IMG/VR virus record: IMGVR_UViG_3300045988_070743
Span: 1-38,508 of that record
Origin: a virus
Strand: one strand, 5' to 3'
Length of the DNA stretch: 38,508 nucleotides
In this document: positions 8,313 to 36,743 of the stretch, in pieces
Layout of the letters: each line of letters starts with the position of its first letter
Position numbering within the stretch: position 1 is the first letter of the stretch
The notes under the pieces: model-generated
What the model saw: the letters and a program-made list of their open reading frames with translations, nothing else
Told to the model about the DNA's origin: nothing
Database searches by the model: none
Program-made: the position numbers and the translations under genes

Positions 8313-9410
8313 CTAAAATTTGTCTTTCTCCATAAATTGTACAATGCCTTTATCTGCTTGAGGTAACCAATGAGCGTACACTGATAGCACTGTATCAAGG
8401 TTATCACCTAATCTTTTTGCAATATCGTATACAGAGAAATTCACTGTTCCATCTGTAACCATATTGTTAATCATGTAAGAAGCGCAGGAGTGCCTTAAAT
8501 CGTGTATTCTTATAATAGGTATCTGCTCATTTTGTTGTAGCTTGATATTCGTTCTCTTAATCGTTTCATTCATTTCTCTTCTAACCGTACTACGATAAAA
8601 AGGTATTGTCATGCCGAATATATAGTCATTCTCATTTGCGTGCATATTCTCTTTAAATATCTTGTATTCATCAGATAGAAACTTCGGCATAGTAATTAAT
8701 CTATAACTATTATTTGTTTTTGGCGTTGTTGTTTTTCTCAATGTTTCTGCCCATGTCTTTTGTATATTAATAGTATTATTTACTAAATCAATATCTTTCC
8801 ACTGTAAAGCTAATGTTTCGCCTATTCTCATACCCATATAGAATTGATTCATAAATAATAAATGATATACCGGTTTATCTTCATTTGCTATAAACTTGTT
8901 GAATTGCTCAACTGTCCAATACATCATGTCTTTCTTTTTTTTGTTTGGGTCTTTCTTCAAATCAATCTTATTACATGGATTCACTTGAATATATCCTTGT
9001 CTTACTGCATAGTTCAATACTGCTCTAAATTTAGTATAATAGTTTAGCACTGAATCAAATGTCATTGACTGCATTAATTTATTAATAGCTTTTTCGATAT
9101 TGTTTGATGAAAGCTTTTTTATTTCACATTCTCCCAACTCATCTTCCCAATATTTCAGAATTGCTCTTTGTGTAAAGTATGTACTTTCCTTAATTCTCTT
9201 TTCCGAGTATACTTGATATTGATAAGATAGTTTATTGAACGTGATAGTTGCGTTCGGTTCTTTTAAATTCTCTTTGAATAGAATCTCGGCTTTTATAGCG
9301 TCCTTCTTTTTTTCAAAGCCACGCTTCTTATATTGCTTGGTCTTTCCATTCAATTTGTATGAACCATAATACATCCATTTGCCTGTTGCTTCATCTTTCT
9401 TGACTGCCAT
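8313..9410 (-). CDS. int: Tyrosine integrase
   Basis: RIHDLRHSCASY ... LGD ... VYAH catalytic-region motifs. The best start is ATG 9410, 6 nt after GAGGTG. The track ORF extends to 9440. Confidence 0.9.
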   Translation of the reverse strand: MAVKKDEATGKWMYYGSYKLNGKTKQYKKRGFEKKKDAIKAEILFKENLKEPNATITFNKLSYQYQVYSEKRIKESTYFTQRAILKYWEDELGECEIKKLSSNNIEKAINKLMQSMTFDSVLNYYTKFRAVLNYAVRQGYIQVNPCNKIDLKKDPNKKKKDMMYWTVEQFNKFIANEDKPVYHLLFMNQFYMGMRIGETLALQWKDIDLVNNTINIQKTWAETLRKTTTPKTNNSYRLITMPKFLSDEYKIFKENMHANENDYIFGMTIPFYRSTVRREMNETIKRTNIKLQQNEQIPIIRIHDLRHSCASYMINNMVTDGTVNFSVYDIAKRLGDNLDTVLSVYAHWLPQADKGIVQFMEKDKF

Positions 9411-10897: not shown

Positions 10898-12640
10898 TTA
10901 TTTAAATAGTTTCGAAACCTTTTTTAATATTTTTAAAATCAAAGCGATAATACGATTGATTCCATTTACATTAATTTTATCATTTGAATCGCTTGTATCG
11001 TTTGAATCATCTTTTTTAGGATTGCTCAACTCATCTAAATATTGTGATACTAATAATTTAAAATCATCCCAACCTTCATCAAGAATCTTGTGTGGGCAAT
11101 ATTTATAATTACCACTTGTCATCTTGTAATCTTGGTGCTTTTTTAAGCAATCAATACTCAATCCATATTTATACAATAGCTCAGATGCAAGTCTTGCTCC
11201 ATTCTCTCTAGCTTTTTTCCATTCATCTTGTGAATCGTTATCATTATCCTTGGCGATTTCGATTTGGATACCTGTTCTATTACCAAATCCATATGCTCCA
11301 TCACCTGTTGCAAATGCATTACGATTCAATGGTAATGATTCAATGATGTCTTTATCATCCACCGAGAAATGCCAAGATTTATATTCCTTCGAATTGTGCA
11401 ATGCATTATTTAAAGCTCTAGCAGTTCCATTTGGTGTTGCCGAGTTATGGATGATAATCGCTTGAGGTTTATTCATTAAATAAGGGCATTTGTAAGGATA
11501 CAATCTCTTATTAATTAAATCAACGATAATACCGTCATGTTCAAGAACTTCATCAGTTTTATCCTTTCCTTCGTAATCTCCTTCATTAACCGATGTAAAT
11601 CCATTTGTATTTACAATGGGTTTCGAAGGGGTTGTGGGTGTTTCGGTAGGTGTTGTCGTTGGCTTTGAGTTGTTCGGAGCAGTAAATGTTGCCCACATTT
11701 GCGTTCTATCCTCTGTTGCAGATACGGCAACGAATACTTTTTTATCTCCGTCTTTGCCTACTACATATCTGTGCCCATTTCCTACATACTTCCAATAATA
11801 GCGAATTGAATCACCAGTGTTGTATGTTTTGCAAACATCACCTTTTGGCGAATCGTAACGTGCTCTCACACCGTCTACCGTGAATGTAGCGATACCATCT
11901 TCTTGTGTTAGGGTAATTGATTCGGTAGGTTTTTGTTCTTCAATAGAAGTAAATGTTGCCCACGGTTCTGTACCTTGCTCATTTCCATTCACTGCCACGA
12001 AATAACGATAGCTTGCACCATCTGCTTGATGTTCAACCCATGAAATATATCTGTGCCCATTTCCTACATATTTTTGCGTGTATTCTAGCTTTGCCCCTTT
12101 TTTCAATGTTTCTGCTACGATTCCATTTGGTGTATCTCTTCTTTTCTGAATGTCATACATTAATGTAGCATAAGCGTGTTCATCTATTAATTTAGATTCT
12201 ATATAATCGCTATTTTGAGTTTGATTTACTAAACATTTAGGTCTAAAGCCTGTATCATATGTGGCACTGTATGGAAATTTACATAAATTAAATGCTCCTC
12301 CTGCACCACCTTGATTTTGTCCTAAGAACCAACCATATTTTCCATCAATATCAGAATCAAAAATTGCAATATGCGAATATGGTGTAACTCCTGGCACTAC
12401 TTTGAACACGACAATATCACCGGGTTGATATACAGATACTTCAACACTGTTTTTCAAGATTCCATTTGTCTTTCTATATAGCCAAATGTCTTTAGCGTAT
12501 TTACTGACTGTACAACTAATTCTTGGGTATCCTAGTTTCTCATACCAATACATTGCACCATCCCAACATTGAGAGCCGTAAGCTCCATCAATGTCAATTC
12601 TTTTGCCTAATACAGCGTTTTTAAAACTTTGATAATCTAT
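10898..12640 (-). CDS. Modular peptidoglycan hydrolase (lysin): CHAP, 2x SH3b-like, Thr/Pro linker, amidase_2, amphipathic tail; probable ATA start
   Basis: CHAP motifs DIDGAYGSQCWDG (catalytic Cys) and YSHIAIF...GQNQ. Two SH3b-like repeats (...YVGNGHRY...WATFT). Amidase_2-like IIIHNSATP...WHFSVDD...YKYCPHKIL. The Cys lies upstream of the first ATG (12553). AGGAGG lies 9 nt upstream of ATA 12640-12638. Confidence 0.85.
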   Translation of the reverse strand: MDYQSFKNAVLGKRIDIDGAYGSQCWDGAMYWYEKLGYPRISCTVSKYAKDIWLYRKTNGILKNSVEVSVYQPGDIVVFKVVPGVTPYSHIAIFDSDIDGKYGWFLGQNQGGAGGAFNLCKFPYSATYDTGFRPKCLVNQTQNSDYIESKLIDEHAYATLMYDIQKRRDTPNGIVAETLKKGAKLEYTQKYVGNGHRYISWVEHQADGASYRYFVAVNGNEQGTEPWATFTSIEEQKPTESITLTQEDGIATFTVDGVRARYDSPKGDVCKTYNTGDSIRYYWKYVGNGHRYVVGKDGDKKVFVAVSATEDRTQMWATFTAPNNSKPTTTPTETPTTPSKPIVNTNGFTSVNEGDYEGKDKTDEVLEHDGIIVDLINKRLYPYKCPYLMNKPQAIIIHNSATPNGTARALNNALHNSKEYKSWHFSVDDKDIIESLPLNRNAFATGDGAYGFGNRTGIQIEIAKDNDNDSQDEWKKARENGARLASELLYKYGLSIDCLKKHQDYKMTSGNYKYCPHKILDEGWDDFKLLVSQYLDELSNPKKDDSNDTSDSNDKINVNGINRIIALILKILKKVSKLFK

Positions 12641-15011: not shown

Positions 15012-15276
15012 AATTCTTGTCTAGATACGTTTCTTTTTCACTGCTTTTTCTTGGTGGTAAAACTGCGCTATACTTTTCTACTTCATCATACTTGTTCTTT
15101 ATTCTTTTGATGATTCTATTCACACTAGAAACACTCATATTTAATCTGTCAGCTTGTTCTCTGACTGTCCATCCGTATATTCTTGTTCTTAGAATCATTT
15201 CTTCATCTTTAGTTAATAAAGCTAGATTAATAAATTCTTCAAGAATAATCTTATTCCAAGGTACTTGATTCGTCAT
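15010..15276 (-). CDS. Small sigma-70 region-4-like HTH protein (88 aa)
   Basis: LTKDEEMILRTRIYGWTVREQADRLNMSVSSVNRIIKRIKNKY matches the region-4 HTH pattern. The start overlaps the holin 3' end by 26 nt. Confidence 0.55.
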   Translation of the reverse strand: MTNQVPWNKIILEEFINLALLTKDEEMILRTRIYGWTVREQADRLNMSVSSVNRIIKRIKNKYDEVEKYSAVLPPRKSSEKETYLDKN

Positions 15277-15766
15277 TGTCTTGTTCTTCGTTAATAAGTT
15301 TATCTGCTACTTCTAATCCTTTAGTTAATACTTTTGGTACATTGTAACCACATTGTAATAAATTCTCCATAACGCTACGAGATTCATTAATACATAGCGA
15401 AGCTAACACAAACCAACCTAGCAATGTAGACACATGGAAATCAATCCCTAGAATTTCTCCTACTTCTACTAAAAATGCACTGAATGTGAACGCAACCACA
15501 ATCATAATCCAATAGCCTAGCTTTTTTAAAACACCGGTCCAACCTTTGTTGCTATTGATTTTATGAGCAATAGCCGACTTCATGCACCCTGTAATATAAT
15601 CCACTACATTCATAAATAAGAAGAACGCAAATAAATACCAATGCTCGCCTAATACGTATGTTAATACGGCTACGGCAACACCACACATTGCATTAATCTT
15701 ATCTAGAAAAAACATACTTCTTGCTATTTGCTTAAATCCTCCATTTTTATTTTCTATTAAATTCAC
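15251..15766 (-). CDS. Holin (Phage_holin_4_1 / TcdE-like family)
   Basis: Multi-TM protein with VVDYITGCMKSAI and INESRSVMENL family motifs. The start is uncertain: GTG 15766 abuts the SD, and ATA 15757, ATA 15727 and ATG 15715 are all in frame. Confidence 0.75.
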   Translation of the reverse strand: MNLIENKNGGFKQIARSMFFLDKINAMCGVAVAVLTYVLGEHWYLFAFFLFMNVVDYITGCMKSAIAHKINSNKGWTGVLKKLGYWIMIVVAFTFSAFLVEVGEILGIDFHVSTLLGWFVLASLCINESRSVMENLLQCGYNVPKVLTKGLEVADKLINEEQDNDESSTLE

Positions 15767-16784: not shown

Positions 16785-17657
16785 CTATATACCTAAATAC
16801 CTTTCGTTGTAGTAAACAGTGCAAGCTAGGTTCGTATCTCCATTATCTGCCGTATATCCTATGATATTCTCACCTAAATTAATAGTCATATCATTGAATG
16901 ATGAAGTTCTATCAACTTTGCCAATACAATTCACGCCATTCTTCTTTATTGAAATAGGTTCAGAAACTAAATCGATTTCTAATACATCACCATTGTGTAA
17001 CGTATCTAATACACGAATATATTTATCTTTATTGAATAGTTTCGGATTTGTCACATCTCCAAATGCTTCAATGACGGCCCTGCAATATGTTTCTGTATCA
17101 CCTTGATTATCAATATAAATTTCTCTAGCGAATGTGAATGTTCCAAAGTTTACGCCTGTTTCCGGTATTTCGAAATTAAATGCTAAACCACCGCCGATTT
17201 CTGCAATATTCTTTGCAAAATCATCAAATGAAAGTAATAAAGGTTGCGTGCATAGAATCGTAAAATTAAGCTCTAAATCTTTGTAGATGTTAACAGTAGG
17301 CAAGCTATACGCATATAAACGACCTCTGCAATACTTCTTTTCTCCCATGTACTCAACTATCACATCAAATACATGAGAATATTGGAAGAAGCGCCGTAGC
17401 TTCTCCCTTTCTTCTCTTTTTTCTTCTAGTGAACCTTTAAAGATAGCTTTCACGCTTCTTTCTTTCGTTGGAATACGTGAACCGATTAATCTAGCACCAT
17501 TTCCAAATGCGTTGTCTTGCGTAGTGTATGAAGGTGCTACATAATCAAATCCATCTAAGCCATCATTTGAAGGAATCCTCCATCTTTTTTGGTTGTCAAT
17601 TTCAAATTCTGTGCCATCATCCCTACGGACAATAACTCTTACTTTATTGATATCTAT
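16785..17657 (-). CDS. Distal tail protein (Dit); probable ATA start
   Basis: The frame is open for 68 codons upstream of the first canonical start (GTG 17453), with no ATG, GTG or TTG. ATA 17657-17655 overlaps the TMP stop (ATAG), 7 nt after GGAGGTG. Confidence 0.7.
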   Translation of the reverse strand: MDINKVRVIVRRDDGTEFEIDNQKRWRIPSNDGLDGFDYVAPSYTTQDNAFGNGARLIGSRIPTKERSVKAIFKGSLEEKREEREKLRRFFQYSHVFDVIVEYMGEKKYCRGRLYAYSLPTVNIYKDLELNFTILCTQPLLLSFDDFAKNIAEIGGGLAFNFEIPETGVNFGTFTFAREIYIDNQGDTETYCRAVIEAFGDVTNPKLFNKDKYIRVLDTLHNGDVLEIDLVSEPISIKKNGVNCIGKVDRTSSFNDMTINLGENIIGYTADNGDTNLACTVYYNERYLGI

Positions 17658-20233
17658 TGAACTACACCTCCATATCCATATCTTGCTTGCATACGTAACA
17701 TTCTAGCGATTTCATCCGGACTTTGAGCTTTATTGTAGAAGTTGATAGTCTGTCCATTGTTATTCGTTGTAACACTAGGCATAATTTGGACCATATCTTT
17801 TGCTACGGCACGAATCCACGCTTTATTCTTTTCTAAAGGAACGACTGCTTCTGCTCCATTACCTTCTAACAATCCAATTTGACCGCGTTTCAATACACCA
17901 CCAAGCTCTAGTTTTGGAATCTTTCCAATGCTAACTCCGGGAATCTTATTGATGATACTGATTGCACCATTAATTCCACCGATAACACCATTTACCATTC
18001 CTTTTACACTTCCAACTAATGATTGCACTGCTCCTTCAATTCCATTGAATACACCACCTACAAAGCCTTTTAAACCGCTCCATGCATTCTGTATTCCATG
18101 TAGAACATTTGAAATCTTATTTCCTACTTTATCCATCACGATTTTTACTTTTGACCACACATCGTCAAATACATTTGAAATAGTATCTTTTACACCTGCG
18201 AAGCTAGAATCAATTATATCAATCACATTTTGTACAATATTTCCAATATTATCGAATACACCTTTGATAACATTCCATATGCTTTCAAATATGCTTGAAA
18301 TTGACTGGAATAAACCACTTGCAAATTGAATGATTGCAGATACTACCTCACTTATCTTGCCCCAAATATTCGTTGCAACAGTTACGATTAAAGACCAAAT
18401 ATTAGATATGATAGATGCAATGATTTGAACAATCGGCATGATGATAGACAATATTGTAGAAATTGCACTTCCAACATATGAAATCACCATACTAATGAAC
18501 GAAATGATTCCACTTACAACACTTCCAACTATCGAAAGAATAGATGTGATTACAGGAATTAATCCAACTATGTTTGAAATCACCATCTTTATAATCGCTA
18601 GGATAGGTGGACCAACCACGCTCAGAATCTTTTGTGCTTGGTTTACGATATTTTGAATAGCTTCAATAATCTTAGCTAATATATCTTTTGCAATAGGTTC
18701 AAGTGCAATCTTCATTTTGTCGATTGCGTCTTTTACCTTATCAAAAGCAGGAGCTAACACTTCAGAAACTTGGCTTGTGATTTTTGTGATTCCACTTGTA
18801 TCAATCTTACTTAATACATTTGAAATTACATCACCAACTTTAGCAAATCCTTGTTGAATACCTTGTATCGCTACTGTAATTAGTCCAATAATACCGGAAA
18901 GAATAGGAGTAATCGCTTCGCCTATTGGAGTAAATGAGTTTAAGAATGTACGCCCTAAGCCACTTAAAGCGTTCTTTAAACCACCATTTGCAATATCTTT
19001 AACCTTTTCCATTGCTCCTTGTACATCTTTATATTTATTCCCTACTGTCGTTAAGGACTGAATGAATCCGGCGTTGAAATCTTCTCCCATTGTACCGAAA
19101 GCCGTTGCAGATTTATTCAATTTTTCTTGTTCATTTGTAGTCTTTGAAATATCTTCTACAATCGCATTCACAACATCTTTTTGAGTTGCTCTTCCTTCTT
19201 GCCATGCCTTAAATACATCTTGTGTTTTGGTATCAAAACTATCTAAAGCTCCTTCAATAGTTCCATCAACTAACCTTGTGGTAACTTCGTTAATTGCGTC
19301 ATTTACTTTGTCAAGGTTATAAGCTCCACCGTCTAAACCATTCTGCATTAATTGGAAGTATTCTTCTGCCGAATATCCTGCTTGCTTGAATTTACCGGAG
19401 TATTCTGAAATGTTGTCGCCTAACTCATCTGATTTGTTTAAACCATTCTGAGCACCTGTAGCCATAAGGTCGAAAGCTTCTTGAGAAGTAATTCCGAACT
19501 GCTTCATTAATTGTTGAGCACCTCTAAGAGTTTCGTTCTCGTCCATGCCGAATGTGTCTCTTAATGTCAATAAATCCTCAGTTACATTCTTTAAATCAAC
19601 ATCGCTTATGCCTTGCATTTGTTGCTTGACACGTGCCATCATATCAGCAACATCTGAAACATCTGAGCCGAAATTATTAGACCAAACATCACGAGCAATG
19701 TTTTTAAATTTATTCATTTCATTGCTTGAAGCACCTGTTTGAGCTTGAAATTTAGCCATAGCGTCATCTAGCTCCACGGCTTGGTTAACACCTGTCTTAA
19801 TAGCTAGTGCCATACCTCCGATAGCTCCTGCTACGGCAGTAACGCCTACAACACCTCCTACGCCTAATCCTGTTAATGTTTCAGTGATTGCAGTAGCTTC
19901 CGGACTAATGTTCTGAATCTTTCCTAATAGTCCATCAAATCCACCTTGAATTGACTCTAATGCACTGTTTCCTACTTGCTTAAATACATCAAATTTAGAA
20001 CCTGTTTCTTGTGTTTCTGTTTGTGTATTCTTTTGCTCTTCGTTTAAATCTTTAAGTTTTTCTTTAATCTTCGGTGGTGCTTTTGAACCATCAGAACCTA
20101 GCTTATCAATCGCTTTTGAAGTTTCTTTAATAGCATTTGTAGCTCCACTTGTGACTACATGAACGGATTTCATTCCATTCTCTAGACCACTTGTATCAAT
20201 CTTTGTATCAAACTTTAATGTTCCGTCTGATAT
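17654..20233 (-). CDS. Tape measure protein; probable ATA start
   Basis: 859 aa with a Gly/Ala/Ile-rich repetitive TM-like core. The conserved-looking N-terminus GTLKFDTKIDTSGLENG lies upstream of the first ATG (20173). ATA 20233-20231 directly follows an in-frame TGA and GGAGGTGG. Confidence 0.8.
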   Translation of the reverse strand: MSDGTLKFDTKIDTSGLENGMKSVHVVTSGATNAIKETSKAIDKLGSDGSKAPPKIKEKLKDLNEEQKNTQTETQETGSKFDVFKQVGNSALESIQGGFDGLLGKIQNISPEATAITETLTGLGVGGVVGVTAVAGAIGGMALAIKTGVNQAVELDDAMAKFQAQTGASSNEMNKFKNIARDVWSNNFGSDVSDVADMMARVKQQMQGISDVDLKNVTEDLLTLRDTFGMDENETLRGAQQLMKQFGITSQEAFDLMATGAQNGLNKSDELGDNISEYSGKFKQAGYSAEEYFQLMQNGLDGGAYNLDKVNDAINEVTTRLVDGTIEGALDSFDTKTQDVFKAWQEGRATQKDVVNAIVEDISKTTNEQEKLNKSATAFGTMGEDFNAGFIQSLTTVGNKYKDVQGAMEKVKDIANGGLKNALSGLGRTFLNSFTPIGEAITPILSGIIGLITVAIQGIQQGFAKVGDVISNVLSKIDTSGITKITSQVSEVLAPAFDKVKDAIDKMKIALEPIAKDILAKIIEAIQNIVNQAQKILSVVGPPILAIIKMVISNIVGLIPVITSILSIVGSVVSGIISFISMVISYVGSAISTILSIIMPIVQIIASIISNIWSLIVTVATNIWGKISEVVSAIIQFASGLFQSISSIFESIWNVIKGVFDNIGNIVQNVIDIIDSSFAGVKDTISNVFDDVWSKVKIVMDKVGNKISNVLHGIQNAWSGLKGFVGGVFNGIEGAVQSLVGSVKGMVNGVIGGINGAISIINKIPGVSIGKIPKLELGGVLKRGQIGLLEGNGAEAVVPLEKNKAWIRAVAKDMVQIMPSVTTNNNGQTINFYNKAQSPDEIARMLRMQARYGYGGVVQ

Positions 20234-21192: not shown

Positions 21193-21699
21193 TTATACTT
21201 CTGATGTACCTTCTGTGAATGTCACTGTTCCATCTGCTACCTTTGCAGTACCAACACGAATATCGCTTGCAAAGTTAATATTGAAGTTGATTTTTGAATC
21301 GACACCGCTTAACGTGTCAAAGATTAATTTAGCGTCAACTTCCCATGCTCTATATCCTTTTGTTTTGTCTCCGTCAAACATGAACGCAATTAAAGCTTTT
21401 GTATTTACTTCTTCGTTGTTTGGCACGGATTTCATCATTTTTTCGTAAATATATTCGAAATCATCTTCGCCTTTAATCATTGTTAAATCTTGCGAAATTT
21501 GAGGTGAATAATTCTTTAATGATTCTGTTGGGTTCTTATCTGCGATAAAGTCATATGTTTCTGTTTCACTGTTAAACGAAATATCTAAAGTTGTAGACTT
21601 TTTAATTCGCTTATATCCTGTTCCCATTTCCAAGAACAAACCAATCATATACTTCTTGACTGTCTGTCCTACGCTTACTTCAGTTCCTTGAGTTGCTAT
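21193..21699 (-). CDS. Major tail (tube) protein; probable ATA start
   Basis: Position and size fit. The frame is open 17 codons upstream of ATG 21648. ATA 21699-21697 overlaps the upstream TAA (TAATA), 8 nt after GGAG. Confidence 0.6.
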   Translation of the reverse strand: MATQGTEVSVGQTVKKYMIGLFLEMGTGYKRIKKSTTLDISFNSETETYDFIADKNPTESLKNYSPQISQDLTMIKGEDDFEYIYEKMMKSVPNNEEVNTKALIAFMFDGDKTKGYRAWEVDAKLIFDTLSGVDSKINFNINFASDIRVGTAKVADGTVTFTEGTSEV

Positions 21700-23258: not shown

Positions 23259-23408
23259 CTATTTTTTCTTTTTATCTTGAGGTTTAGCTTCCTCTTTTTC
23301 TTCTGTGGGTTCTTCTTTTTCTTCTTCATTAACTGTAGGCTCGTTAACTTTTGGTTGTTCAACCTCTTTATTGATGGAAGGATAGCCCCATCCGATTTCC
23401 GTTGCCAT
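23259..23408 (-). CDS. Small acidic Glu/Lys/Pro-rich protein (49 aa), absent from the ORF track
   Basis: TAATG overlap with the capsid stop. Sequence is MATEIGWGYPSINKEVEQPKVNEPTVNEEEKEEPTEEKEEAKPQDKKKK. Confidence 0.45.
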   Translation of the reverse strand: MATEIGWGYPSINKEVEQPKVNEPTVNEEEKEEPTEEKEEAKPQDKKKK

Positions 23409-24277
23409 TACTTAGCACTAGCAGATAAGTAAATACCTGCTACCTTATTTGCGTATACATCAACGATTCCATACTTACGATATTTCAATACATCTGAATC
23501 TGATTCAATGTTATTGCTTGCCGGAATTACATTTGAAACGGTGTGTTTATCCCATTTCATAACGGCAGGCTTGTGAACAATTAAGAAGTTAATTGCGTGT
23601 CCATCTTCTGCCTTTTCGTATCCGCCTTCAAGCTCTGTATCTTTTCCACTCAACAATTTAATTTTTGTATAGAAACGTGTTGAAGGTACAGGAACAACTT
23701 TTGCGAATCCTTGTAAAGCTTCACGAGATTTGTAAGTGTCCAACGCCTTAACGCTATTTAATAATGTTGGTGTTGAATACAAGATACGTTGTTCGCTAGG
23801 AACTTCATCCTCATCCATTTTAGTGATAGCCGTTAATAATGCGCTCAAGAACTCTTCTGCACCTGTATAATCTTCTGCAACTGTTGTGATTCCTGTTGTG
23901 CCGGCAATTTTGGCGAATGTGTAAGCGTCTGCTTCCGGTGCTACCTTTGTACGCATTAATTCCGCTCCTGCCATACCGAACGCAATATTCATTGATTCTG
24001 CGTTATCCTGTGTATCAACTGAGATTTTAGTTCCTCGGTCATAGTCGAATGTAGCAGTTTTCCATTCTAATTTAACTGAGTTACCTGTATAACCACTGTT
24101 TCTATCGTAGTTTCCTAAACCCTTGACTGAAATTTGTGGATAGATGATTTCTTTTGCGTTCGCTCCTGCTCTAACCATTGTAGCGTCTGCGTTTAAATCA
24201 CCTGTAACTGAAGCTAACTTATATACCTCATCCAAATTTGAGACATACGTTTTAGCTAATGCAATTTGATTTGGTAT
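23408..24277 (-). CDS. Major capsid protein; probable ATA start
   Basis: 289 aa directly after the scaffold gene. AAGGAGG lies 9 nt upstream of ATA 24277-24275, with an in-frame TAA two codons upstream. The first canonical start (TTG 24235) has no SD. Confidence 0.7.
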   Translation of the reverse strand: MPNQIALAKTYVSNLDEVYKLASVTGDLNADATMVRAGANAKEIIYPQISVKGLGNYDRNSGYTGNSVKLEWKTATFDYDRGTKISVDTQDNAESMNIAFGMAGAELMRTKVAPEADAYTFAKIAGTTGITTVAEDYTGAEEFLSALLTAITKMDEDEVPSEQRILYSTPTLLNSVKALDTYKSREALQGFAKVVPVPSTRFYTKIKLLSGKDTELEGGYEKAEDGHAINFLIVHKPAVMKWDKHTVSNVIPASNNIESDSDVLKYRKYGIVDVYANKVAGIYLSASAK

Positions 24278-27834: not shown

Positions 27835-28443
27835 CTAACCCCACATTGTGTTTAAATCGTTTGTTGTAATCGCAGTTAATTCTGATTTCTTAACATATGC
27901 CGATAAATCAATGTCTGTATTACCAATCTTTTCAAATGTTTTGCTTTCTGATAACCAAATATATTCATTATAAATATCTTGTGTTCCGTGTGAATGTGCT
28001 ACCAAATAGATAACACCATTTGAACCTGTAGCAGGTAAGCTCGTTACCTTTTCATATCTAATAGATGTAATATTACCTACTGCCGAATTAATCAACGATT
28101 GTACTTGTGATTGCGTTTGATACCCTTTAGCCGTGATAATTGACTCAACGCTCGTCGCCGACTGATATCCACTGTCATTTGTTAATTGTGATGTCTTTGT
28201 AGGCACTGTAACATCCACGGCTTTTGAGCTTGGCGTTAATTTCGTACCATTTACCTTTACAGACTCAATCACATTCACTTGAGCACCACTTGCGATACCA
28301 CTTAATTTGTTTTTTTCTGCATTAGTATAGTCATTTGTCGATAAGCCTTTACCACTTACAACATTAACTTTCCCACCTAATTCAGATTTAATTTTACTGA
28401 TTAAGAGCGTCAATCCACTCTTATCTAAATATTCAATAGCTAT
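27835..28443 (-). CDS. Tail fibre repeat protein (GKGLSTNDYT...EKNKL motif); probable ATA start
   Basis: GGAGG lies 7 nt upstream of ATA 28443-28441. The N-terminal AIEYLDKSGLTLLISKIK lies upstream of the SD-less TTG 28413. Confidence 0.6.
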   Translation of the reverse strand: MAIEYLDKSGLTLLISKIKSELGGKVNVVSGKGLSTNDYTNAEKNKLSGIASGAQVNVIESVKVNGTKLTPSSKAVDVTVPTKTSQLTNDSGYQSATSVESIITAKGYQTQSQVQSLINSAVGNITSIRYEKVTSLPATGSNGVIYLVAHSHGTQDIYNEYIWLSESKTFEKIGNTDIDLSAYVKKSELTAITTNDLNTMWG

Positions 28444-28754: not shown

Positions 28755-29050
28755 GTAATCACTTCCTTATTCAATACTCTATATACCTTTGTTGTCTTGA
28801 CAGGAGAAGCAATAGCAACTCCTCCTTTTGTAATCATTCTTAATTGAATATTACAAGTACCCTCTTTGAAATTGAGCGTTTCTTCTTGACTTAACAACAC
28901 TGAAATAACATTTCCTTCAATGTCTAAATCACTTGATTCTTTTTTTAAGATATATCCGTTCTGTTCAAATACCACATAGATATTCTGCATTTCATTTAAA
29001 TCAATATCGTTTATTGTGATTTGAATTGTTGGCGTAGTTCCTTGTCTCAT
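28751..29050 (-). CDS. Fibre-associated protein (99 aa)
   Basis: ATGA-coupled ATG 29050. The track ORF extends to TTG 29071. Confidence 0.5.
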   Translation of the reverse strand: MRQGTTPTIQITINDIDLNEMQNIYVVFEQNGYILKKESSDLDIEGNVISVLLSQEETLNFKEGTCNIQLRMITKGGVAIASPVKTTKVYRVLNKEVIT

Positions 29051-29856
29051 GATTTCACCTTGTAAGTCCAATCTTTGCCTACTTCACCCGACTCAACTTC
29101 ATACGCCCAATCGGCTAGCATTTCATGACCGTTCTCATCTACCAGTGTTCCATCTTCTGTTAATAGAATCGTAGTGAAATGGTTATTCATAAGCATTTGT
29201 TCTACATTTGCAATTCGGTTCATTAACTTACCTGCGGTATTTGAATCCAACGTATCTTTTACGCTTGCGAACCATTCATTGAACTCTGTTCTATTTGCAT
29301 TCATTTCAGATTCATTCTGAGCTTTAATTTCCTTGAATAACTCAGTAACTTGAGTGAACAAATCCAATGATTGTACGCTCTTAATTGCGCTTGTAACTGC
29401 TCCGCAACGTGTAGAATCTAATCTTGTATCAGTAATATCTGAGCCTTTAACTTCACTTGAATTACCTGTGACCGTGACTGTAGCTAGTACTAAATCATAA
29501 ATAGAATCACTTCTTGTAATTCCACTGTTAATATCACTTGCAACTAATGTGATGTTTCTGTGTGCGTCATTATCATTCAGTCTAAGAATAATATTGTAGC
29601 TTTTGGTTGCGTTATTCTTTTCTAGTGTGATGGTTTCGTCATCCCTTTGCCAATAGAATGCTCCATTGATATTCGCTCGTCCTGCTTTAACTGTTAATGT
29701 TAAGCCTTGAGCTTTCTCGACTCTTAAATGGTCTGAACCGGAATCATCTACGAACACGCCATTTGTAAAGTAGCTTGAGAATAATCTTCTGAAAGCGTCA
29801 TATAATACTAATCTATCGCCATTTCTTGAGACGAATGGAAAATATGTTGTTGCTAT
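29047..29856 (-). CDS. Fibre/structural protein (269 aa); probable ATA start
   Basis: The frame is open 33 codons upstream of GTG 29757 (ATTYFPFVSRNGDRLVLYDAFRRLFSSYFTNGV), with an in-frame TGA 3 codons upstream. ATA 29856-29854 overlaps the portal TAG. Confidence 0.6.
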   Translation of the reverse strand: MATTYFPFVSRNGDRLVLYDAFRRLFSSYFTNGVFVDDSGSDHLRVEKAQGLTLTVKAGRANINGAFYWQRDDETITLEKNNATKSYNIILRLNDNDAHRNITLVASDINSGITRSDSIYDLVLATVTVTGNSSEVKGSDITDTRLDSTRCGAVTSAIKSVQSLDLFTQVTELFKEIKAQNESEMNANRTEFNEWFASVKDTLDSNTAGKLMNRIANVEQMLMNNHFTTILLTEDGTLVDENGHEMLADWAYEVESGEVGKDWTYKVKS

Positions 29857-31256
29857 TCTTCTTCATCCTCCTCTCCATCATCTTGAATTTCTTCATTTAA
29901 TAACTCAGTTGCTTCTTCTTCAGTAAAGCCGTATTGCTTCATAAAGTACATAATTTTCAATCTTGGAATATCAAATGTTAATGCGTCATTCCTTAACGCT
30001 TGTGCCGTGCTTTGCTTATCCTCGATATATGTATCGTCATAATCAATCGCAATGTCTAATGAATTGATATTAAGCTTTCTGCCTTGTGTCAATTCATAGA
30101 AGTATGCTATTGCTTGAATGATATCTTGAATATATGCAGTAGACTCTTTTCGTTGTGCATTCACTTCCTTCATTGCGTCTTGATTCTCACCGATATATTC
30201 GGTAGCAGTGACAATTCTTCCACTTTCAAAGGTGTATTTCTTTGTGCCAAATCCAAACATCATAGATAAGATACTTAATGCGGTTTCTAGTGATTGCACA
30301 ACTTCTTGTGTTCTAACTGTTGGATTGTATTCTTGCCATAACGCTTTTTCTTCCGGTAGTTTGTCTCTACCTAATTGAACGAAGATATTCTTTAATTGTG
30401 GATTCTGTTTAACCTTTCCATTCTTGTCTTTCTGCATTAACGCTTCATTTACAAGAACGATTTTATCTGATTTCAATAAATCTCGATTCCACATTGTCAT
30501 TGTCAAATCAATTGTTTTTAAAGGAGCGATTGCGCTCCAAATCTTTGGTAAGCCGTACCCTTGCATTTGTAAGTTGTTGACTTTTGCGTTTCTCATAATC
30601 GCAAACGGCTTGACCACATCTAATTGAACAATTTGAGCACGGTCTTTTATTTCTTCGCCTGTATCTTTGAAGTAATGTGTTTCTGCAATATATCTTTCGT
30701 CTTGTCCTTTTAAGAACATGACCATCACATATACTTTTTTTAATTTCTCATAATTTACTCCAACGAAAGCAACTTCCACAATTTCATCATTAATAACAGT
30801 TAGTGGAAGGATATTCATGGAATCACAATAATTAATTCTAATTTCTCCCCCACTGAATGTACCATCTTCATAAATCTCGGCATTTGATACCGTCACATAA
30901 GCTCCTACCGTACCATTTGCAGACATTTGCTCAACTTGTTTCCTATACATTACATCAAATCTATTCTTTGTTAGAATGTCTGAAATAATGTCATTTGTAG
31001 CACTGTCCTCTGTTGCGTTTATATCCAAGATTTCAATTAAGTTTGCATCATCTTCACACAAACGCTTTGCAAAGTCTGTCTTATCCAATGTATATTGCTC
31101 ATTATTTAATGTGTATGCCGTATGAAATTCTGTTTCGGTATTTGTGTACCACTTGTTGCACAATTCAATAATTTCAATTGCGTTTGTGTCTACATAATAC
31201 CCTCTATCGTTTAGGTAATTCTGAAACCACGGTCTACGTGTGTTAGATGTTTCTAT
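29853..31256 (-). CDS. Portal protein (SPP1 gp6-like); probable ATA start
   Basis: 467 aa directly after terL. TAAGGAGG lies 6 nt upstream of ATA 31256-31254. The first canonical start (TTG 31163) is 31 codons downstream with no SD. Confidence 0.75.
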   Translation of the reverse strand: METSNTRRPWFQNYLNDRGYYVDTNAIEIIELCNKWYTNTETEFHTAYTLNNEQYTLDKTDFAKRLCEDDANLIEILDINATEDSATNDIISDILTKNRFDVMYRKQVEQMSANGTVGAYVTVSNAEIYEDGTFSGGEIRINYCDSMNILPLTVINDEIVEVAFVGVNYEKLKKVYVMVMFLKGQDERYIAETHYFKDTGEEIKDRAQIVQLDVVKPFAIMRNAKVNNLQMQGYGLPKIWSAIAPLKTIDLTMTMWNRDLLKSDKIVLVNEALMQKDKNGKVKQNPQLKNIFVQLGRDKLPEEKALWQEYNPTVRTQEVVQSLETALSILSMMFGFGTKKYTFESGRIVTATEYIGENQDAMKEVNAQRKESTAYIQDIIQAIAYFYELTQGRKLNINSLDIAIDYDDTYIEDKQSTAQALRNDALTFDIPRLKIMYFMKQYGFTEEEATELLNEEIQDDGEEDEEE

Positions 31257-32959: not shown

Positions 32960-33086
32960 ATTGATTCAATTGTTTTTTAAGCCTTTGCAATCTTTTTCTT
33001 AAATCTCTTTTTCTATATTCTGATGTCGTGTTTTCTAATTCTTCTTCAACGCTTTTCATTTGGCGTAAATATTCTTCTCTAGACAT
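32937..33086 (-). CDS. 49-aa basic coiled-coil ORF, absent from the ORF track
   Basis: MSREEYLRQMKSVEEELENTTSEYRKRDLRKRLQRLKKQLNQYDCYRGY. The ATG overlaps the radical-SAM gene 3' end. Confidence 0.45.
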   Translation of the reverse strand: MSREEYLRQMKSVEEELENTTSEYRKRDLRKRLQRLKKQLNQYDCYRGY

Positions 33087-34386
33087 GTCTTGCTTCTTCT
33101 GTTTCAAGTTCTGTAATCTCCTCTGTTCTTTTTAAGAATGTTACTGAATTATCATATTCGTAAATGATGTCATTATTTTCATCAAATCCTACAGGCTTTA
33201 AGACTTTTTCAAAAATCTTATAAGGTGATTGTCCTGCTTTTGGTGAATTCCATAAATAATGCAGATAATCTTTCATTGTCATTCCTGCATATTTCGCCCT
33301 AGCTTCTGATGAATTTGTATTAAAACCAATTGCTTTGTTACGTTCAAAATCTAAGAAGTACATATCCTTTTCAATATCTTTCCAATGTACTCTTCCATGT
33401 TTCTTTGCAATTTGTAAAGCTCCACTAAAATTTCCTCTTGAGTAATCCCAATTCTTGCCTAATGCGCAACAACAACAGTTATTCGAGCATTCTTTAAAGT
33501 GTGCGTCTGATACATAGAATCTCATGCCTAATTCATCACATAGCTCTTTCATCTTTTGAATGTATTTAGCCTTTACTTTTCTGTTAAGTCTTAAATATCC
33601 ACTTCCATTTGAATGTTTTCTATAAAAATCTACAATATCAAATCCTGCACATTCACTAATCACATCATAATGCTCCTTAGCTTGTTTAATAGAGCGCATT
33701 TCTAAGCAAAAGAACTCTGTAGTAACTGCAGTAGCTCCTGCCTTTTTTGCTTCTCTAATTAAATCTAGATAGGTTTTATCTGACACTCCTACAATAAATG
33801 GACGCAACCTTAAAGTTGCACCACCTTTTGATAGTTCAGTATACTTTTTCATTGCTTCAAGTCTTTTTCTTGGACTTGGCACACCTACTTCGATTTTTCT
33901 TGCGTCCTCTTCATCTAGTGTGATGATACTAAACTTAACATTCCAATTGTCTGCGTCTTTGAATAACTCTTGATATTTAGGGTCGTTAAATACCCATGCC
34001 GATTTCGTACTAAAACAGATAGGATAGTTAATAGATTTTAGATACTTGAGCATTTCATAGGTTTTACCATATTTCTTTTCATATCCGTCGAATTGGTCCG
34101 ATAATCCACCATATTGAATAGGACGTCTGTCTTTAATGTATTTATAGAATTGTGATTTTGTATCTTCTCCACTGAAAATCTTTTTACACTTCTCAACATT
34201 GATACATTTCACATCTTTATTAAGATATGCTTCTTTACTTGCACCAATACCTCTTTGATATTGGCTAAAACAATAAACACATCCAAATGAACAGTTGGAA
34301 TATGTGTCAAATGTTACCGGTAATGAGCAATCTGCGATTTCTCCTGTCCATCTTGGTGATTGATATGTCTCACTGATTTTATTCAC
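33079..34386 (-). CDS. Radical SAM protein (SPL/COG1533-like)
   Basis: CSFGCVYC = CxxxCxxC cluster near the N-terminus, and a second Cys cluster CSNNCCCCALG. GTG lies 7 nt after GGAGG. Confidence 0.7.
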   Translation of the reverse strand: MNKISETYQSPRWTGEIADCSLPVTFDTYSNCSFGCVYCFSQYQRGIGASKEAYLNKDVKCINVEKCKKIFSGEDTKSQFYKYIKDRRPIQYGGLSDQFDGYEKKYGKTYEMLKYLKSINYPICFSTKSAWVFNDPKYQELFKDADNWNVKFSIITLDEEDARKIEVGVPSPRKRLEAMKKYTELSKGGATLRLRPFIVGVSDKTYLDLIREAKKAGATAVTTEFFCLEMRSIKQAKEHYDVISECAGFDIVDFYRKHSNGSGYLRLNRKVKAKYIQKMKELCDELGMRFYVSDAHFKECSNNCCCCALGKNWDYSRGNFSGALQIAKKHGRVHWKDIEKDMYFLDFERNKAIGFNTNSSEARAKYAGMTMKDYLHYLWNSPKAGQSPYKIFEKVLKPVGFDENNDIIYEYDNSVTFLKRTEEITELETEEARHV

Positions 34387-34387
34387 C

Positions 34388-35149
34388 TTATATCCTCCAT
34401 TTCCTTTTCAACAATACTGTTCTATCTTTTTTTGTTACCATATCCGGATATTTCTTTACTAGGCGTCTAAGCCATAGTTCTTGTTCTCCTCTTTGGTATC
34501 TGTCATACATTCCGCCTTTTTCCTTTCCCATGTAAGATTTATTTGGCACAATGTTATTTACTCTAGCTATGATATACCCTTGCCTAATCATTCTTAGATT
34601 CAATTCATAATCCTCTAACATATCCCATTTCTCATCAAATTTGATTTCTTCACTTTTAATAACAAAACACAATCCACCTTGTACGAGTGTATTGAATGAA
34701 TATGTTTCACCTTTCTTAACATAGCTAGCTATATTCATATTATTGGTTGTGGGTAGACATCCCATGAAGTGAATATTGTTCTTTTGCATAAATGAGAATA
34801 CCTCATTAAATGTCTTATCCAACTCAGTGATTTTTTTCTGCGTTCCACATTTATTCCCTTGCTTTTCTTCCCATTTTCTAAAATCTCTGATGTCATCATC
34901 TAGTAAGATGATTTTTGCCCCATTTTCAAAATAATTTAGAATGTTATTTCTATTCGAAGCTACGTTATTCCCACGCCTAGTAATGATTTGAGCTTGACTC
35001 CCTAATTCTTCAACATAAGTTTTGAAATCATTTGAATCATTTAAGCTAATAACAATTCTTTCATCTTCAATCCCGCATTCTTTTAGTGCGTGATATGTTT
35101 TACATTTTGGTCTATGATAACTTGCTATTGCATAATAGATGTTATTCAT
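34388..35149 (-). CDS. GT-A fold glycosyltransferase-like protein
   Basis: N-terminal YYAIASYHRP strand and the IILLDDDI (DxD) motif. Confidence 0.5.
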   Translation of the reverse strand: MNNIYYAIASYHRPKCKTYHALKECGIEDERIVISLNDSNDFKTYVEELGSQAQIITRRGNNVASNRNNILNYFENGAKIILLDDDIRDFRKWEEKQGNKCGTQKKITELDKTFNEVFSFMQKNNIHFMGCLPTTNNMNIASYVKKGETYSFNTLVQGGLCFVIKSEEIKFDEKWDMLEDYELNLRMIRQGYIIARVNNIVPNKSYMGKEKGGMYDRYQRGEQELWLRRLVKKYPDMVTKKDRTVLLKRKWRI

Positions 35150-35723
35150 GCATTAATTCCTTGATGTCGTAGCACACTTTTAATTCAGTTACCTGTAAAA
35201 GTTTCTCTAAGAATAGTTGCTCTTCCTCTGTTTCATATGTAATGATTACACGTTGTTTTTTTAACATTTCTTCTGAATGTTCGCTAAATGCGTCCATAAG
35301 CTCGTTGTCATATCCTTCTGCTTCCATATCCTCAGTTAATGCACTAATTTCAAAATCGCCAAATCCGAAATCTCTCATGTCGATTCCGTCGATTTCTTCT
35401 AGCTCTTCCATTTCTGTTTTTAATGCGTCTAAATCCCACGAAGCTTTTTCTGCCGTTTTATTATCTGCAATTCTAAATGCTTTTACTTGCTCATCCGTTA
35501 AATCATCTGCAACCACACAAGGAACAGTTTCTAAGCCTAATTCTTGACTAGCTTTATATCGTGTATGACCTGCAACAATAACTCCATTTTTATCAATAAC
35601 AATAGGGACTTTGAAGCCGAATTCCTCAATAGAATTTTTAACAAATTTCACTGCTCCATCATTGATTCTAGGGTTATTCTCATAAGGTTTTAGCTCATTT
35701 AATCTTTTTTCAACAATATTCAT
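35142..35723 (-). CDS. ParB/sulfiredoxin-like nuclease-domain protein
   Basis: LKPYENNPRIND...PIVIDKNGVIVAGHTRYKAS motif. ATG 35723 follows GGAGGGG. The track ORF extends to 35747. Confidence 0.7.
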   Translation of the reverse strand: MNIVEKRLNELKPYENNPRINDGAVKFVKNSIEEFGFKVPIVIDKNGVIVAGHTRYKASQELGLETVPCVVADDLTDEQVKAFRIADNKTAEKASWDLDALKTEMEELEEIDGIDMRDFGFGDFEISALTEDMEAEGYDNELMDAFSEHSEEMLKKQRVIITYETEEEQLFLEKLLQVTELKVCYDIKELMHE

Positions 35724-35743
35724 TATTTCCCCTCCTTTTAAAC

Positions 35744-35989
35744 TCATAGAGCGTCATTTACATTTATACAAGTATTTGTATTCTTGATGTATTCATCACA
35801 GTATAATTCCTTTTTATCGCCGTTATACGTCACCTCATAGTAATTGTCTGTGCTTTGAGCACTAATTAATGCTTTATTGTTTTGAAGCACTCTAACCATC
35901 CATACAACGAACATTTCACTGATTGCAATATTTGGGTTTACTTGAAATACTGCATTCATTGCTAATTCTTGAAATTCTTTTGAACCCAT
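35744..35989 (-). CDS. Hypothetical protein (81 aa), first ORF after the tRNA
   Basis: GGAGG lies 5 nt upstream of the ATG. Confidence 0.6.
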   Translation of the reverse strand: MGSKEFQELAMNAVFQVNPNIAISEMFVVWMVRVLQNNKALISAQSTDNYYEVTYNGDKKELYCDEYIKNTNTCINVNDAL

Positions 35990-36004: not shown

Positions 36005-36032
36005 ATTAAAAGAACCGAGACAAATGCTCGGT
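36005..36032 (-). terminator. Intrinsic terminator downstream of the tRNA locus
   Basis: Minus-sense ACCGAG-CAUUUGU-CUCGGU followed by UCUUUUAAU. Confidence 0.6.
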
Positions 36033-36114
36033 AATATATCAAAGCCTAATTGTATGCCATTGTTGGTATTTAATATCTAATTTGGGAAGGACTTACTGAT
36101 AGGCTTTGTAATCA

Positions 36115-36190
36115 TGGTTGCAGGAGAAGGAATTGCACCATTCGACCTCTAGCTAATAAGACTAGTGAGCTACTACTGCTCTATCCTGCT
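36115..36190 (-). tRNA. tRNA-like gene, anticodon UAU (reads AUA), with initiator-type features
   Basis: 5'-AGCAGGAUAGAGCAGUAGUAGCUCACUAGUCUUAUUAGCUAGAGGUCGAAUGGUGCAAUUCCUUCUCCUGCAACCA-3'. Acceptor 2-7/66-71 is paired and 1:72 is an A.A mismatch. U8; D stem GAGC/GCUC; anticodon stem CUAGU/GCUAG; loop CU-UAU-UA. Variable loop AGGUC; T arm GAA(U)GG-UGCAAUU-CCUUC; A73; encoded CCA. Folded by hand only. Confidence 0.65.
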
Positions 36191-36206: not shown

Positions 36207-36230
36207 GAAAAAATGCTCACAATGTGAGCA
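36207..36230 (-). terminator. Intrinsic terminator after the late-activator gene (hairpin copy 2)
   Basis: Minus-sense UGCUCAC-AUU-GUGAGCA followed by U6. It overlaps the stop codon. Confidence 0.7.
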
Positions 36231-36543
36231 CTTTCTTCAAGTTCTTGTTTATTTTTCTTGGAATTTCTTCTCTTGCATAACCCACAATATTAGATGTCTT
36301 TTCTGCACTAAATCCCTTTATATATCTATACTCAATCATTGTTCGAGTCGTATCATCAAGTTGGCTTAATTTATCTTTTACATAATTCATTCTTCTTGCA
36401 TAATCTGCATGAGCCAAGAATAGCTCGGCTTTTAAAGGATAAATTGCTTCATCCCTTTGTAGCTCTGCTATCTTTTGCTCATAATATGTGTACGATTGGC
36501 ATTCACACAAGAAGTGTCTCTTAATATCTTCATACGTGCTCAT
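36217..36543 (-). CDS. ArpU/RinA-like late transcriptional activator (sigma region-4-like)
   Basis: MIEYRYIKGFSAEKTSNIVGYAREEIPRKINKNLKKV HTH pattern. It is the last gene before the late region. Confidence 0.55.
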   Translation of the reverse strand: MSTYEDIKRHFLCECQSYTYYEQKIAELQRDEAIYPLKAELFLAHADYARRMNYVKDKLSQLDDTTRTMIEYRYIKGFSAEKTSNIVGYAREEIPRKINKNLKKVLTL

Positions 36544-36743
36544 GAACTGTATACCTTATACAATCTATCTTTTAATTCGCCAACTTCACTTCTTAATTTC
36601 TTGATTTCTTTAGCTTGAGTATGAATTGTTGCGTTTCTTTCTTTTATAGTCTGCTTCAATTCAATATTCTTCCTTCCTAGTCTATTGTTTTTATAAATTA
36701 ACTCTTTAATCCTTTCTTCATAATTCATTTCTATTAATTTCAC
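36540..36743 (-). CDS. Hypothetical coiled-coil protein (up to 67 aa)
   Basis: GTG 36743 abuts the SD. ATA 36734-36732 (8 nt after GGAGG) and ATG 36728 are in frame. Confidence 0.5.
   Translation of the reverse strand: MKLIEMNYEERIKELIYKNNRLGRKNIELKQTIKERNATIHTQAKEIKKLRSEVGELKDRLYKVYSS

Follow-up and report, generated by a model that had tools for sequence, protein, structure and literature searches.

Few features of bacterial translation are as fixed as the identity of the start codon, and the CAU anticodon of the bacterial initiator tRNA, tRNA-fMet, confers methionine identity and reads AUG, GUG, and UUG. Here we describe a viral genome, IMG/VR record IMGVR_UViG_3300045988_070743, analyzed over its positions 1 to 38,508 (this whole stretch of 38,508 nucleotides is referred to below as the window), in which a minus-strand tRNA gene with an initiator-type scaffold carries a UAU anticodon and nine late genes appear to start at the matching codon, ATA. 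It is probable that a family of temperate gut phages has evolved a natural form of orthogonal initiation, in which a UAU initiator, probably bearing formyl-isoleucine, starts translation at AUA codons of virion and lysis genes, so that late proteins would need the phage tRNA and would carry N termini other than methionine.

The closest functional analogues of such a system are engineered orthogonal initiators and amber-start biocontainment, represented by the amber tRNA-fMet(CUA), i-tRNA(AAC), and phages contained by amber start codons (10.1101/2024.07.29.605542; 10.1101/2021.05.25.445580; PMC11744186). These share with the phage system a changed anticodon on an initiator scaffold, a matching non-AUG start codon, and genes that depend on a special tRNA. 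They are man-made, whereas the phage system is natural, phage carried, directed at the sense codon AUA, and kept across diverged lineages. The closest natural analogue in logic is the recoding of stop codons by suppressor tRNAs of gut phages (10.1101/2021.08.26.457843), where a phage tRNA likewise alters codon reading in late, structural, and lysis genes and the proposed role is likewise a translational gate on the lytic program. However, stop-codon recoding reads in-frame stops during elongation, whereas the UAU system involves the start codon and an initiator tRNA. Phages, including low-GC Firmicutes-type phages, also carry tRNA-Ile2 (CAU, lysidine) and tRNA-Ile(UAU) that read AUA (PMC10688831; PMC3919564), but these elongators have a paired position 1:72, Y11:R24, and a purine at position 37 and serve codon supplementation, none of which applies to the UAU initiator. 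AUA is a genuine start codon in mitochondria as well, through f5C34 in tRNA-Met (PMC2655697); there, C34 of a single tRNA-Met is modified, and the tRNA still reads AUG and inserts methionine, whereas the phage has a separate tRNA with a genomically encoded UAU. With bacterial tRNA-fMet itself (Escherichia coli metZ, metW, and metV), the phage tRNA shares an unpaired 1:72, G2:C71, C3:G70, A11:U24, G12:C23, G30:C40, the variable loop AGGUC, A73, and CCA, and it differs in having UAU, U31·G39, U37, a 7-nt D loop, the T-loop sequence UGCAA (with G55), and a bulged T stem. Because UAU stands in place of CAU, the phage tRNA should pair with AUA and should not be a substrate of MetRS. In the full-text literature, we found no precedent for a natural phage initiator with a non-CAU anticodon and matching recoded starts; only engineered ones were found.

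For every open reading frame (ORF) of the window, possible starts and Shine-Dalgarno sites were listed. In nine late genes, none of the ATG, GTG, or TTG codons is a plausible start, and each gene has an ATA codon 7 to 12 nt past a strong Shine-Dalgarno site, AAGGAG(G); the ATA stands right after the upstream stop codon or overlaps it as ATAG. These genes are as follows.

29853..31256, minus strand: portal gene; ATA at 31256, AAGGAGG with a spacing of 7, in-frame stop two codons upstream
29047..29856, minus strand: head protein gene; ATA at 29856, overlapping the portal stop as ATAG
27835..28443, minus strand: late gene g28443 (phrog_24103); ATA at 28443, AGGAGG with a spacing of 7
23408..24277, minus strand: major capsid protein gene; ATA at 24277, AAGGAGG with a spacing of 9 to 10
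21193..21699, minus strand: late gene g21699 (phrog_3099) in a tail-gene position; ATA at 21699; in relatives, 32 ATA and 1 ATG
17654..20233, minus strand: tape measure gene; ATA at 20233, directly after a TGA stop; PhageMin_Tail and phrog_58 (residues 7 to 846)
16785..17657, minus strand: Dit (distal tail protein) gene; ATA at 17657, overlapping the tape measure stop as ATAG; SPP1_Dit
15251..15757, minus strand: holin gene; ATA at 15757, AAGGAG with a spacing of 8; Phage_holin_4_1, E value of 3e-31; in relatives, 24 ATA and 3 ATG
10898..12640, minus strand: endolysin gene; ATA at 12640, AAGGAGG with a spacing of 10

Among codons at the heads of ORFs with a Shine-Dalgarno site, ATA ranks second (ATG, 16; ATA, 9; GTG, 3; TTG, 0). 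The first canonical codons lie 10 to 34 codons past the ATA, and PHROG profiles begin at residues 2 to 7 in five of the nine proteins (head protein, g28443, major capsid protein, tape measure, and endolysin). Residues 2 to 187 of the head protein align with phrog_5339 positions 5 to 197, residues 4 to 200 of g28443 with profile positions 4 to 195 of 197, residues 3 to 288 of the major capsid protein with phrog_422 positions 3 to 294 of 297, and residues 3 to 66 of the endolysin with phrog_291 positions 6 to 69; the first ATG of the endolysin lies 29 codons downstream, past a QCWDG motif. In the portal protein, residues 22 to 465 align with phrog_533 positions 27 to 485, and a TTG that lacks a Shine-Dalgarno site, 31 codons in, is its first canonical codon.

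Comparison with homologues leads to the same assignment. The codon that aligns with the capsid start is ATG (M-P/A-N...) in about 43 homologues with 47 to 56% identity and ATA in all 35 close relatives. The start is ATA in every relative for the portal (54/54), head protein (45/45), tape measure (32/32), and Dit (28/28) genes, and relatives of g28443 have 18 ATA and 7 ATG. Within the clade, the start codon is ATA or ATG alone; ATT and ATC, which would be silent changes at an internal isoleucine codon, were never seen. Neighboring codons vary synonymously, as do those that follow the Dit start, and frame-breaking indels of 1 to 2 nt occur between the Shine-Dalgarno site and the ATA, including a 1-nt indel at this place in the capsid gene and 1-nt indels upstream of the g28443 start. 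When one pipeline was applied to both groups, it counted 228 ATA, 255 ATG, and 21 GTG starts in 35 clade loci and 4 ATA, 368 ATG, 52 GTG, and 20 TTG starts in 45 loci of sister phages. As the profile alignments, the ATG of homologues, the variation within the clade, and the pipeline control agree, the nine ATA codons are evidently start codons.

The ATA starts are concentrated in late genes, as expected of a code switch (9 of 33 late genes versus 0 to 1 of 22 early genes). The in-frame stops that would mark such a switch are not present: genes end in the standard TAA, TAG, and TGA, and no suppressor tRNA was found in the window by ARAGORN or Rfam. Internal ATA codons number 11 per 1,000 codons in late genes versus 20 in early genes; their lower frequency in late genes argues against plain codon supplementation.

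The ATA starts are what a UAU initiator needs for a function, and the window carries such a tRNA, with the following features.

36115..36190, minus strand: initiator-type tRNA(UAU); anticodon 36158..36156; A1·A72, A11:U24, G30:C40, U37, A73, and an encoded CCA
36177..36171 and 36137..36131, minus strand: D loop and T loop of this tRNA

The tRNA sequence, read from 36190 to 36115 on the minus strand, has 76 nt: AGCAGGAUAGAGCAGUAGUAGCUCACUAGUCUUAUUAGCUAGAGGUCGAAUGGUGCAAUUCCUUCUCCUGCAACCA. A preliminary description of the window, made from its letters, had proposed a minus-strand cloverleaf of this length, and this proposal is borne out by a covariance model and by the covariation described below. 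Rfam RF00005 matches 36190..36118 over model positions 1 to 71 with 48.0 bits (E value of 2.2e-7; the gathering score is 29 bits), and this is the sole Rfam match across the window. The same description had read the tRNA as initiator-like and AUA reading, and every sequence feature that it cited for this reading holds. The anticodon loop CU-UAU-UA, the A1·A72 mismatch, and the D stem GAGC/GCUC with A11:U24 are found both in the sequence and in an alignment, and the variable loop AGGUC and the 3' end GCAACCA are the same as those of annotated E. coli metZ. The deviations from a canonical initiator listed there are also real, with one correction. The run of three G:C pairs in the anticodon stem is missing (A29:U41, G30:C40, U31·G39), position 37 is U, the T stem has a single bulged base, and position 55 is G within the T loop UGCAAUU. 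The D loop does have 7 nt (AGUAGUA), but it contains two Gs rather than one, one of them at the G18/G19 site.

The scaffold was compared with annotated tRNAs of E. coli K-12, taken from the annotation by coordinate, to which three UAU variants were aligned; a BLAST search of the phage tRNA against E. coli genomes gave no match. The alignment favors the initiator, with the following identities of the three variants.

metZ, initiator: 65 to 76%
metT, elongator Met: 47 to 50%
ileX, Ile2: 52 to 54%
ileV, Ile1: 50 to 53%

In a survey of tRNA(CAT) genes, A11:T24 and G12:C23 were complete discriminators of fMet, C3:G70 was typical for Met and fMet and not for Ile, and the 1:72 mismatch was nearly universal (PMC1635315). 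The phage tRNA has all four: A11:U24, G12:C23, C3:G70, and a 1:72 mismatch. The formyltransferase determinants, G2:C71, C3:G70, and A73, are invariant in the alignment of relatives, as is the D stem GAGC/GCUC (22/22). Position 1:72 is A1·A72 in every variant of the UAU clade and is unpaired in 18 of 22 relatives. The initiator run of G:C pairs at 29-31:39-41 (consensus R29 G30 G31/Y39 C40 Y41) is not present; the anticodon stem of variant B reads G29:C41, G30:C40, U31·G39, and G30:C40 is the sole invariant one of the three pairs (22/22 relatives). In E. coli, the middle pair, 30:40, is enough by itself (PMC5389676). Every clade member has the anticodon UAU. Lacking CAU and the full run of three G:C pairs, both of them defining for tRNA-fMet, the gene is not filed as a tRNA-fMet. 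It does have the AUA-capable anticodon of a tRNA-Ile, but not the scaffold: it has A1·A72, A11:U24, U37, C3:G70, A4:U69, and G5:C68, whereas the acceptor stem of elongator tRNA-Ile(CAT) typically has G3/A3 or C4:G69 and C5:G68 (PMC1635315). By its scaffold, then, the phage tRNA is predicted to be an initiator and not an elongator tRNA-Ile.

About 45 IMG/VR contigs, in addition to contigs from ENA and Logan, share the locus, and the tRNA lies directly after the terminator of an activator-like gene in all 88 fetched locus copies that have this terminator. Ten distinct sequence variants occur in the clade. Across 22 distinct relatives, 94.8% of cloverleaf cells are paired versus 81.9% in shuffles, and double-sided changes occur at twelve pairs, which was matched by none of 500 shuffles. 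The anticodon stem occurs in three versions that differ by paired changes (CUAGU/GCUAG, UCGGU/GCCGA, and UUGGU/GCCAA), and the loop CUUAUUA is constant across all three. In variant L037, the D loop (AGUGGUG) and the T loop (UUCAAAU) are normal, and the T stem lacks the bulge. The tRNA is evidently real, conserved, and under selection. An origin as an attP site or tRNA fragment was ruled out, as the gene is full length, encodes its CCA, and lies far from the integrase.

The combination of tRNA and ATA starts recurs outside the clade. In a second lineage (loci L268 and L309), the anticodon loop CUUAUUA is unchanged, but the acceptor stem (CGCAAGG...CCUUGCA, with C1·A72 as in E. coli) and the T arm differ, and ATA starts stand behind Shine-Dalgarno sites in its terS, portal, capsid, and other genes. 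Its capsid protein aligns with profile positions 2 to 289 over residues 2 to 287 and is 53% identical to that of the window, with I1 aligned to I1; the terL products are 73% identical. A further lineage, L310 (85% capsid identity), also has ATA starts, and the tRNA was not found in the 10 kb of flank available there. ATA starts in diverged lineages indicate that the tRNA(UAU)/ATA-start system has apparently persisted through substantial divergence. A QueT-like gene upstream of terS in L310 (780-1238) has an apparent ATA start behind GGAGG. A scan for further tRNAs with the CUUAUUA loop gave chance matches alone beyond the UAU clade and L268. One of the other pattern matches, L302 9883-10358, was a GOLLD RNA (RF02032, 166 bits) with an embedded tRNA on an unrelated viral contig, a chance match.

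IMG/VR was also scanned for the initiator scaffold with a free anticodon, which yielded more than 120 contigs and 84 distinct sequences. Every family member outside the UAU clade has CAU, which argues that the tRNA of the window arose by a change from CAU to UAU in an initiator-like tRNA that is widespread in phages. A strong 1:72 pair was seen in 1 of the 84. In these 84 tRNAs, the D loop AGUAGUA always occurs with the T loop UGC (12/12) and AGUGGU(A/G) with UUC (72/72). This covariation fits a tertiary contact and a working L shape, and it suggests that the contact G18:psi55 may have been replaced by an A:G contact. The phage initiator-like tRNA(CAU) family with a 7-nt D loop is found at IMG/VR loci L070-L177, with the 1:72 combinations A·A, C·A, U·U, and U:A; 17 of the 84 family members have a GGG/CCC anticodon stem, and three (L079, L080, and L094) have U37. 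The L093-type CAU tRNA, which has the closest acceptor stem, was dropped as a clue to ancestry after it was found in unrelated phages. A large phage contig, L002 (40-7563), has a 20-tRNA array that includes a CAU cousin at 1177-1251, followed at 1266-1361 by an unusually long, 96-nt "tRNA-Ile(tat)". Certain sister phages whose genes start at ATG have a tRNA(CAU) immediately upstream of the major capsid gene, with GGG/CCC and a D stem of the initiator type, at the following positions.

L212, L214, L216, and L244, 9259-9332: sister-phage tRNA(CAU)
L217, 6009-6082: sister-phage tRNA(CAU)

We consider it likely, with a probability of roughly 0.8, that the phage-encoded initiator decodes the AUA starts and thereby gates the translation of late genes. 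In the proposed mechanism, the anticodon of an initiator changed from CAU to UAU, giving full pairing with AUA in the ribosomal P site, and nine late genes exchanged ATG for the matching ATA. The tRNA would be charged, most likely with isoleucine by IleRS, would be formylated by way of its acceptor determinants, and would enter through IF2. It would itself decode the nine ATA starts, and without it these genes would be poorly translated. The benefit may be that late and lysis genes are kept off in the lysogen or early in infection. Published measurements are consistent with the decoding and charging steps. The native E. coli initiator gave 238 units from AUA versus 7,314 from AUG, about 3% (PMC3643588), and 0.1 to 1% of AUG in another study (PMC11744186). 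Efficient initiation at the matching codon is seen for initiators with an altered anticodon (GAU at AUC and CUA at UAG) (PMC3643588). As the ordinary E. coli initiator reads AUA poorly, the ATA genes would be translated efficiently only once the phage tRNA is present. On Bacillus subtilis ribosomes, binding of a tRNA with an unmodified UAU anticodon is strong to AUA and weak to AUG, and this tRNA is a good substrate of IleRS (PMC3919564). As the nine ATA genes are virion and lysis genes, a translational gate is the simplest purpose.

Several observations weigh against this proposal. ARAGORN called no tRNA in the window, and the minimum-free-energy fold, although in essence the cloverleaf, is energetically no better than that of shuffled sequences (z = -0.75); it is thus covariation and the covariance model that support the tRNA. 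The tRNA has the unusual traits of U37, G55, a short D loop, and a bulge in the T stem, and with U·G at 31:39, it keeps at most two, and at least one, of the canonical three G:C pairs. A scan for sigma-70 promoters directly upstream of the tRNA gave nothing convincing. Finally, no ATA starts were seen in the available flank of the initiator-like tRNAs(UAU) of three further loci, which indicates that an initiator-like UAU scaffold need not imply ATA starts. These tRNAs, which have a purine at position 37, are in unrelated phages, two of them high in GC.

L262, 915-990: initiator-like tRNA(UAU)
L263, 3772-3845, minus strand: initiator-like tRNA(UAU)
L267, 2346-2420, minus strand: initiator-like tRNA(UAU)

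The purpose of the same AUA-reading initiator could differ from a gate. If the tRNA were not recognized by nucleases of the host or of competitors that attack tRNA-fMet (VapC-like), late translation would continue when the host initiator is attacked or lost. Enteric VapC cuts within the anticodon region of the initiator tRNA, and loop mutations have been proposed to let phage tRNAs evade anticodon nucleases (PMC10264068). In line with this, the anticodon arm is where the differences from a typical initiator are concentrated (U31·G39, U34, and U37), and initiator-like tRNA(CAU) genes are widespread in phages, three of them with U37. However, a resistant CAU initiator would suffice without the recoding of nine genes, and early genes still start at ATG and would fail anyway; a timing gate is the simpler explanation for ATA starts that are confined to virion and lysis genes. 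We therefore regard a defense-evading purpose as unlikely. It is far less likely still that the tRNA is an ordinary elongator tRNA-Ile(UAU) that supplements the reading of rare AUA codons while something else reads the ATA starts. ARAGORN does label the sister variants L035 and L265 as tRNA-Ile(tat), prophage AUA decoders are common in Firmicutes phages (PMC10688831), and internal ATA accounts for 15 to 28% of the isoleucine codons of the phage. The unpaired 1:72 and the pairs A11:U24 and G12:C23, which mark initiators and do not occur in Ile or Met elongators (PMC1635315), argue the other way, as do the identity of just 50 to 54% to E. coli Ile tRNAs, the U37 that makes t6A impossible, and the lower frequency of internal ATA in late genes; an elongator would also offer no explanation for the nine ATA starts or for their strict association with the tRNA.

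Alternatively, the ATA codons could be deliberately weak starts read by the host tRNA-fMet, with the tRNA being unrelated or a decaying relic. Native initiators do manage low-level starts at AUA (PMC3643588), and the rejection of the window copy by ARAGORN and its unremarkable fold energy would suit a relic. This explanation is scarcely credible. The major capsid, portal, and tape measure proteins are needed in bulk, and all 88 locus copies retain the tRNA, whose stems have changed in a compensatory manner around a constant anticodon loop. The loop and the ATA starts are also common to two lineages that differ in their acceptor stems, and the sister phages use ATG.

The window as a whole has the appearance of a complete genome of a temperate siphophage, about 38.5 kb long with 33% G+C, and it has a tyrosine integrase gene at 9410..8313. 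The minus-strand order is SSB, a small coiled-coil gene, a 108-amino-acid activator-like gene, a hairpin with a T run, and the tRNA, followed by a promoter-like site, a second hairpin, variable cargo, terS, terL, portal, head, tail, and lysis genes. This order agrees with the preliminary description, which had placed the tRNA after the terminator of the activator gene with the late genes downstream. The elements around the tRNA are as follows.

36540..36734, minus strand: small coiled-coil gene; possible ATA start at 36734, AGGAGG with a spacing of 8
36217..36543, minus strand: late-activator-like gene, 108 amino acids, ATG start; Pfam Sigma70_r4, E value of 0.0076, below the curated cutoff; phrog_36, transcriptional regulator
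36207..36230, minus strand: terminator-like hairpin GTGCTCAC-ATT-GTGAGCA and then TTTTTT; separates the activator gene from the tRNA
36014..36060, minus strand: putative sigma-70-like promoter (36060..36033) and putative terminator-like hairpin (36032..36014), both of them consensus matches alone
33079..35989, minus strand: cargo genes, encoding a DUF6275 protein, a ParB_N protein, a TET-associated glycosyltransferase, and a PA0069/Rv2578c-like radical SAM protein

The hairpin at 36230..36214 ends the activator gene, and the same stem was also reported by the scan on the opposite strand; the 5' end of the tRNA lies about 17 nt past the T run. The promoter match and the second hairpin lie between the tRNA and the first gene on the late side. 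The start of the coiled-coil gene (g36734) is ambiguous: an ATG lies two codons downstream of the ATA, and public gene calls take the ATG; the ATA is kept in 51 locus copies with a variable spacer. The ATG of the activator gene overlaps the stop of the coiled-coil gene as ATGA (36540..36543), and the Shine-Dalgarno site of the activator gene is weak. Activator synthesis could be translationally coupled to the gene with the ATA start. In L268, the activator homologue itself apparently starts at ATA.

The cargo between the tRNA and terS resembles a DNA modification or repair module, and its content varies among near-identical relatives. The radical SAM protein, which resembles the PA0069/Rv2578c type, the glycosyltransferase, and the ParB-like protein were considered as tRNA modifiers and rejected, as their genes come and go among relatives, unlike the tRNA and the ATA starts, whose presence is constant. 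A BLAST search of the locus against 50,697 phage records gave a sole match, to a mycobacteriophage tRNA-Met with 78% identity, and this UAU tRNA was not found in any GTDB representative genome. The nearest genomic relatives of the capsid, at most 56% identical, are in a "Tenericutes" metagenome-assembled genome and in Oscillospiraceae. Contigs that encode the activator protein are all phage sized, and exact copies of this protein occur in 97 blocks of a public assembly collection; the phage is common in human gut metagenomes.

To our knowledge, standard gene callers disallow ATA starts, so that the N termini of proteins with ATA starts are cut off in annotation. In public calls (protein clusters P0001-P0003 and the gene calls in L313-L316), the capsid protein has 275 amino acids (a cluster of 1,224 sequences) or 256 amino acids versus 289 from the ATA, and the portal protein has 436 versus 467. 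If confirmed, the system described here would add a new layer to phage gene regulation, in which translation is gated by a private start codon, and it would provide a ready-made natural part for orthogonal initiation and phage biocontainment.

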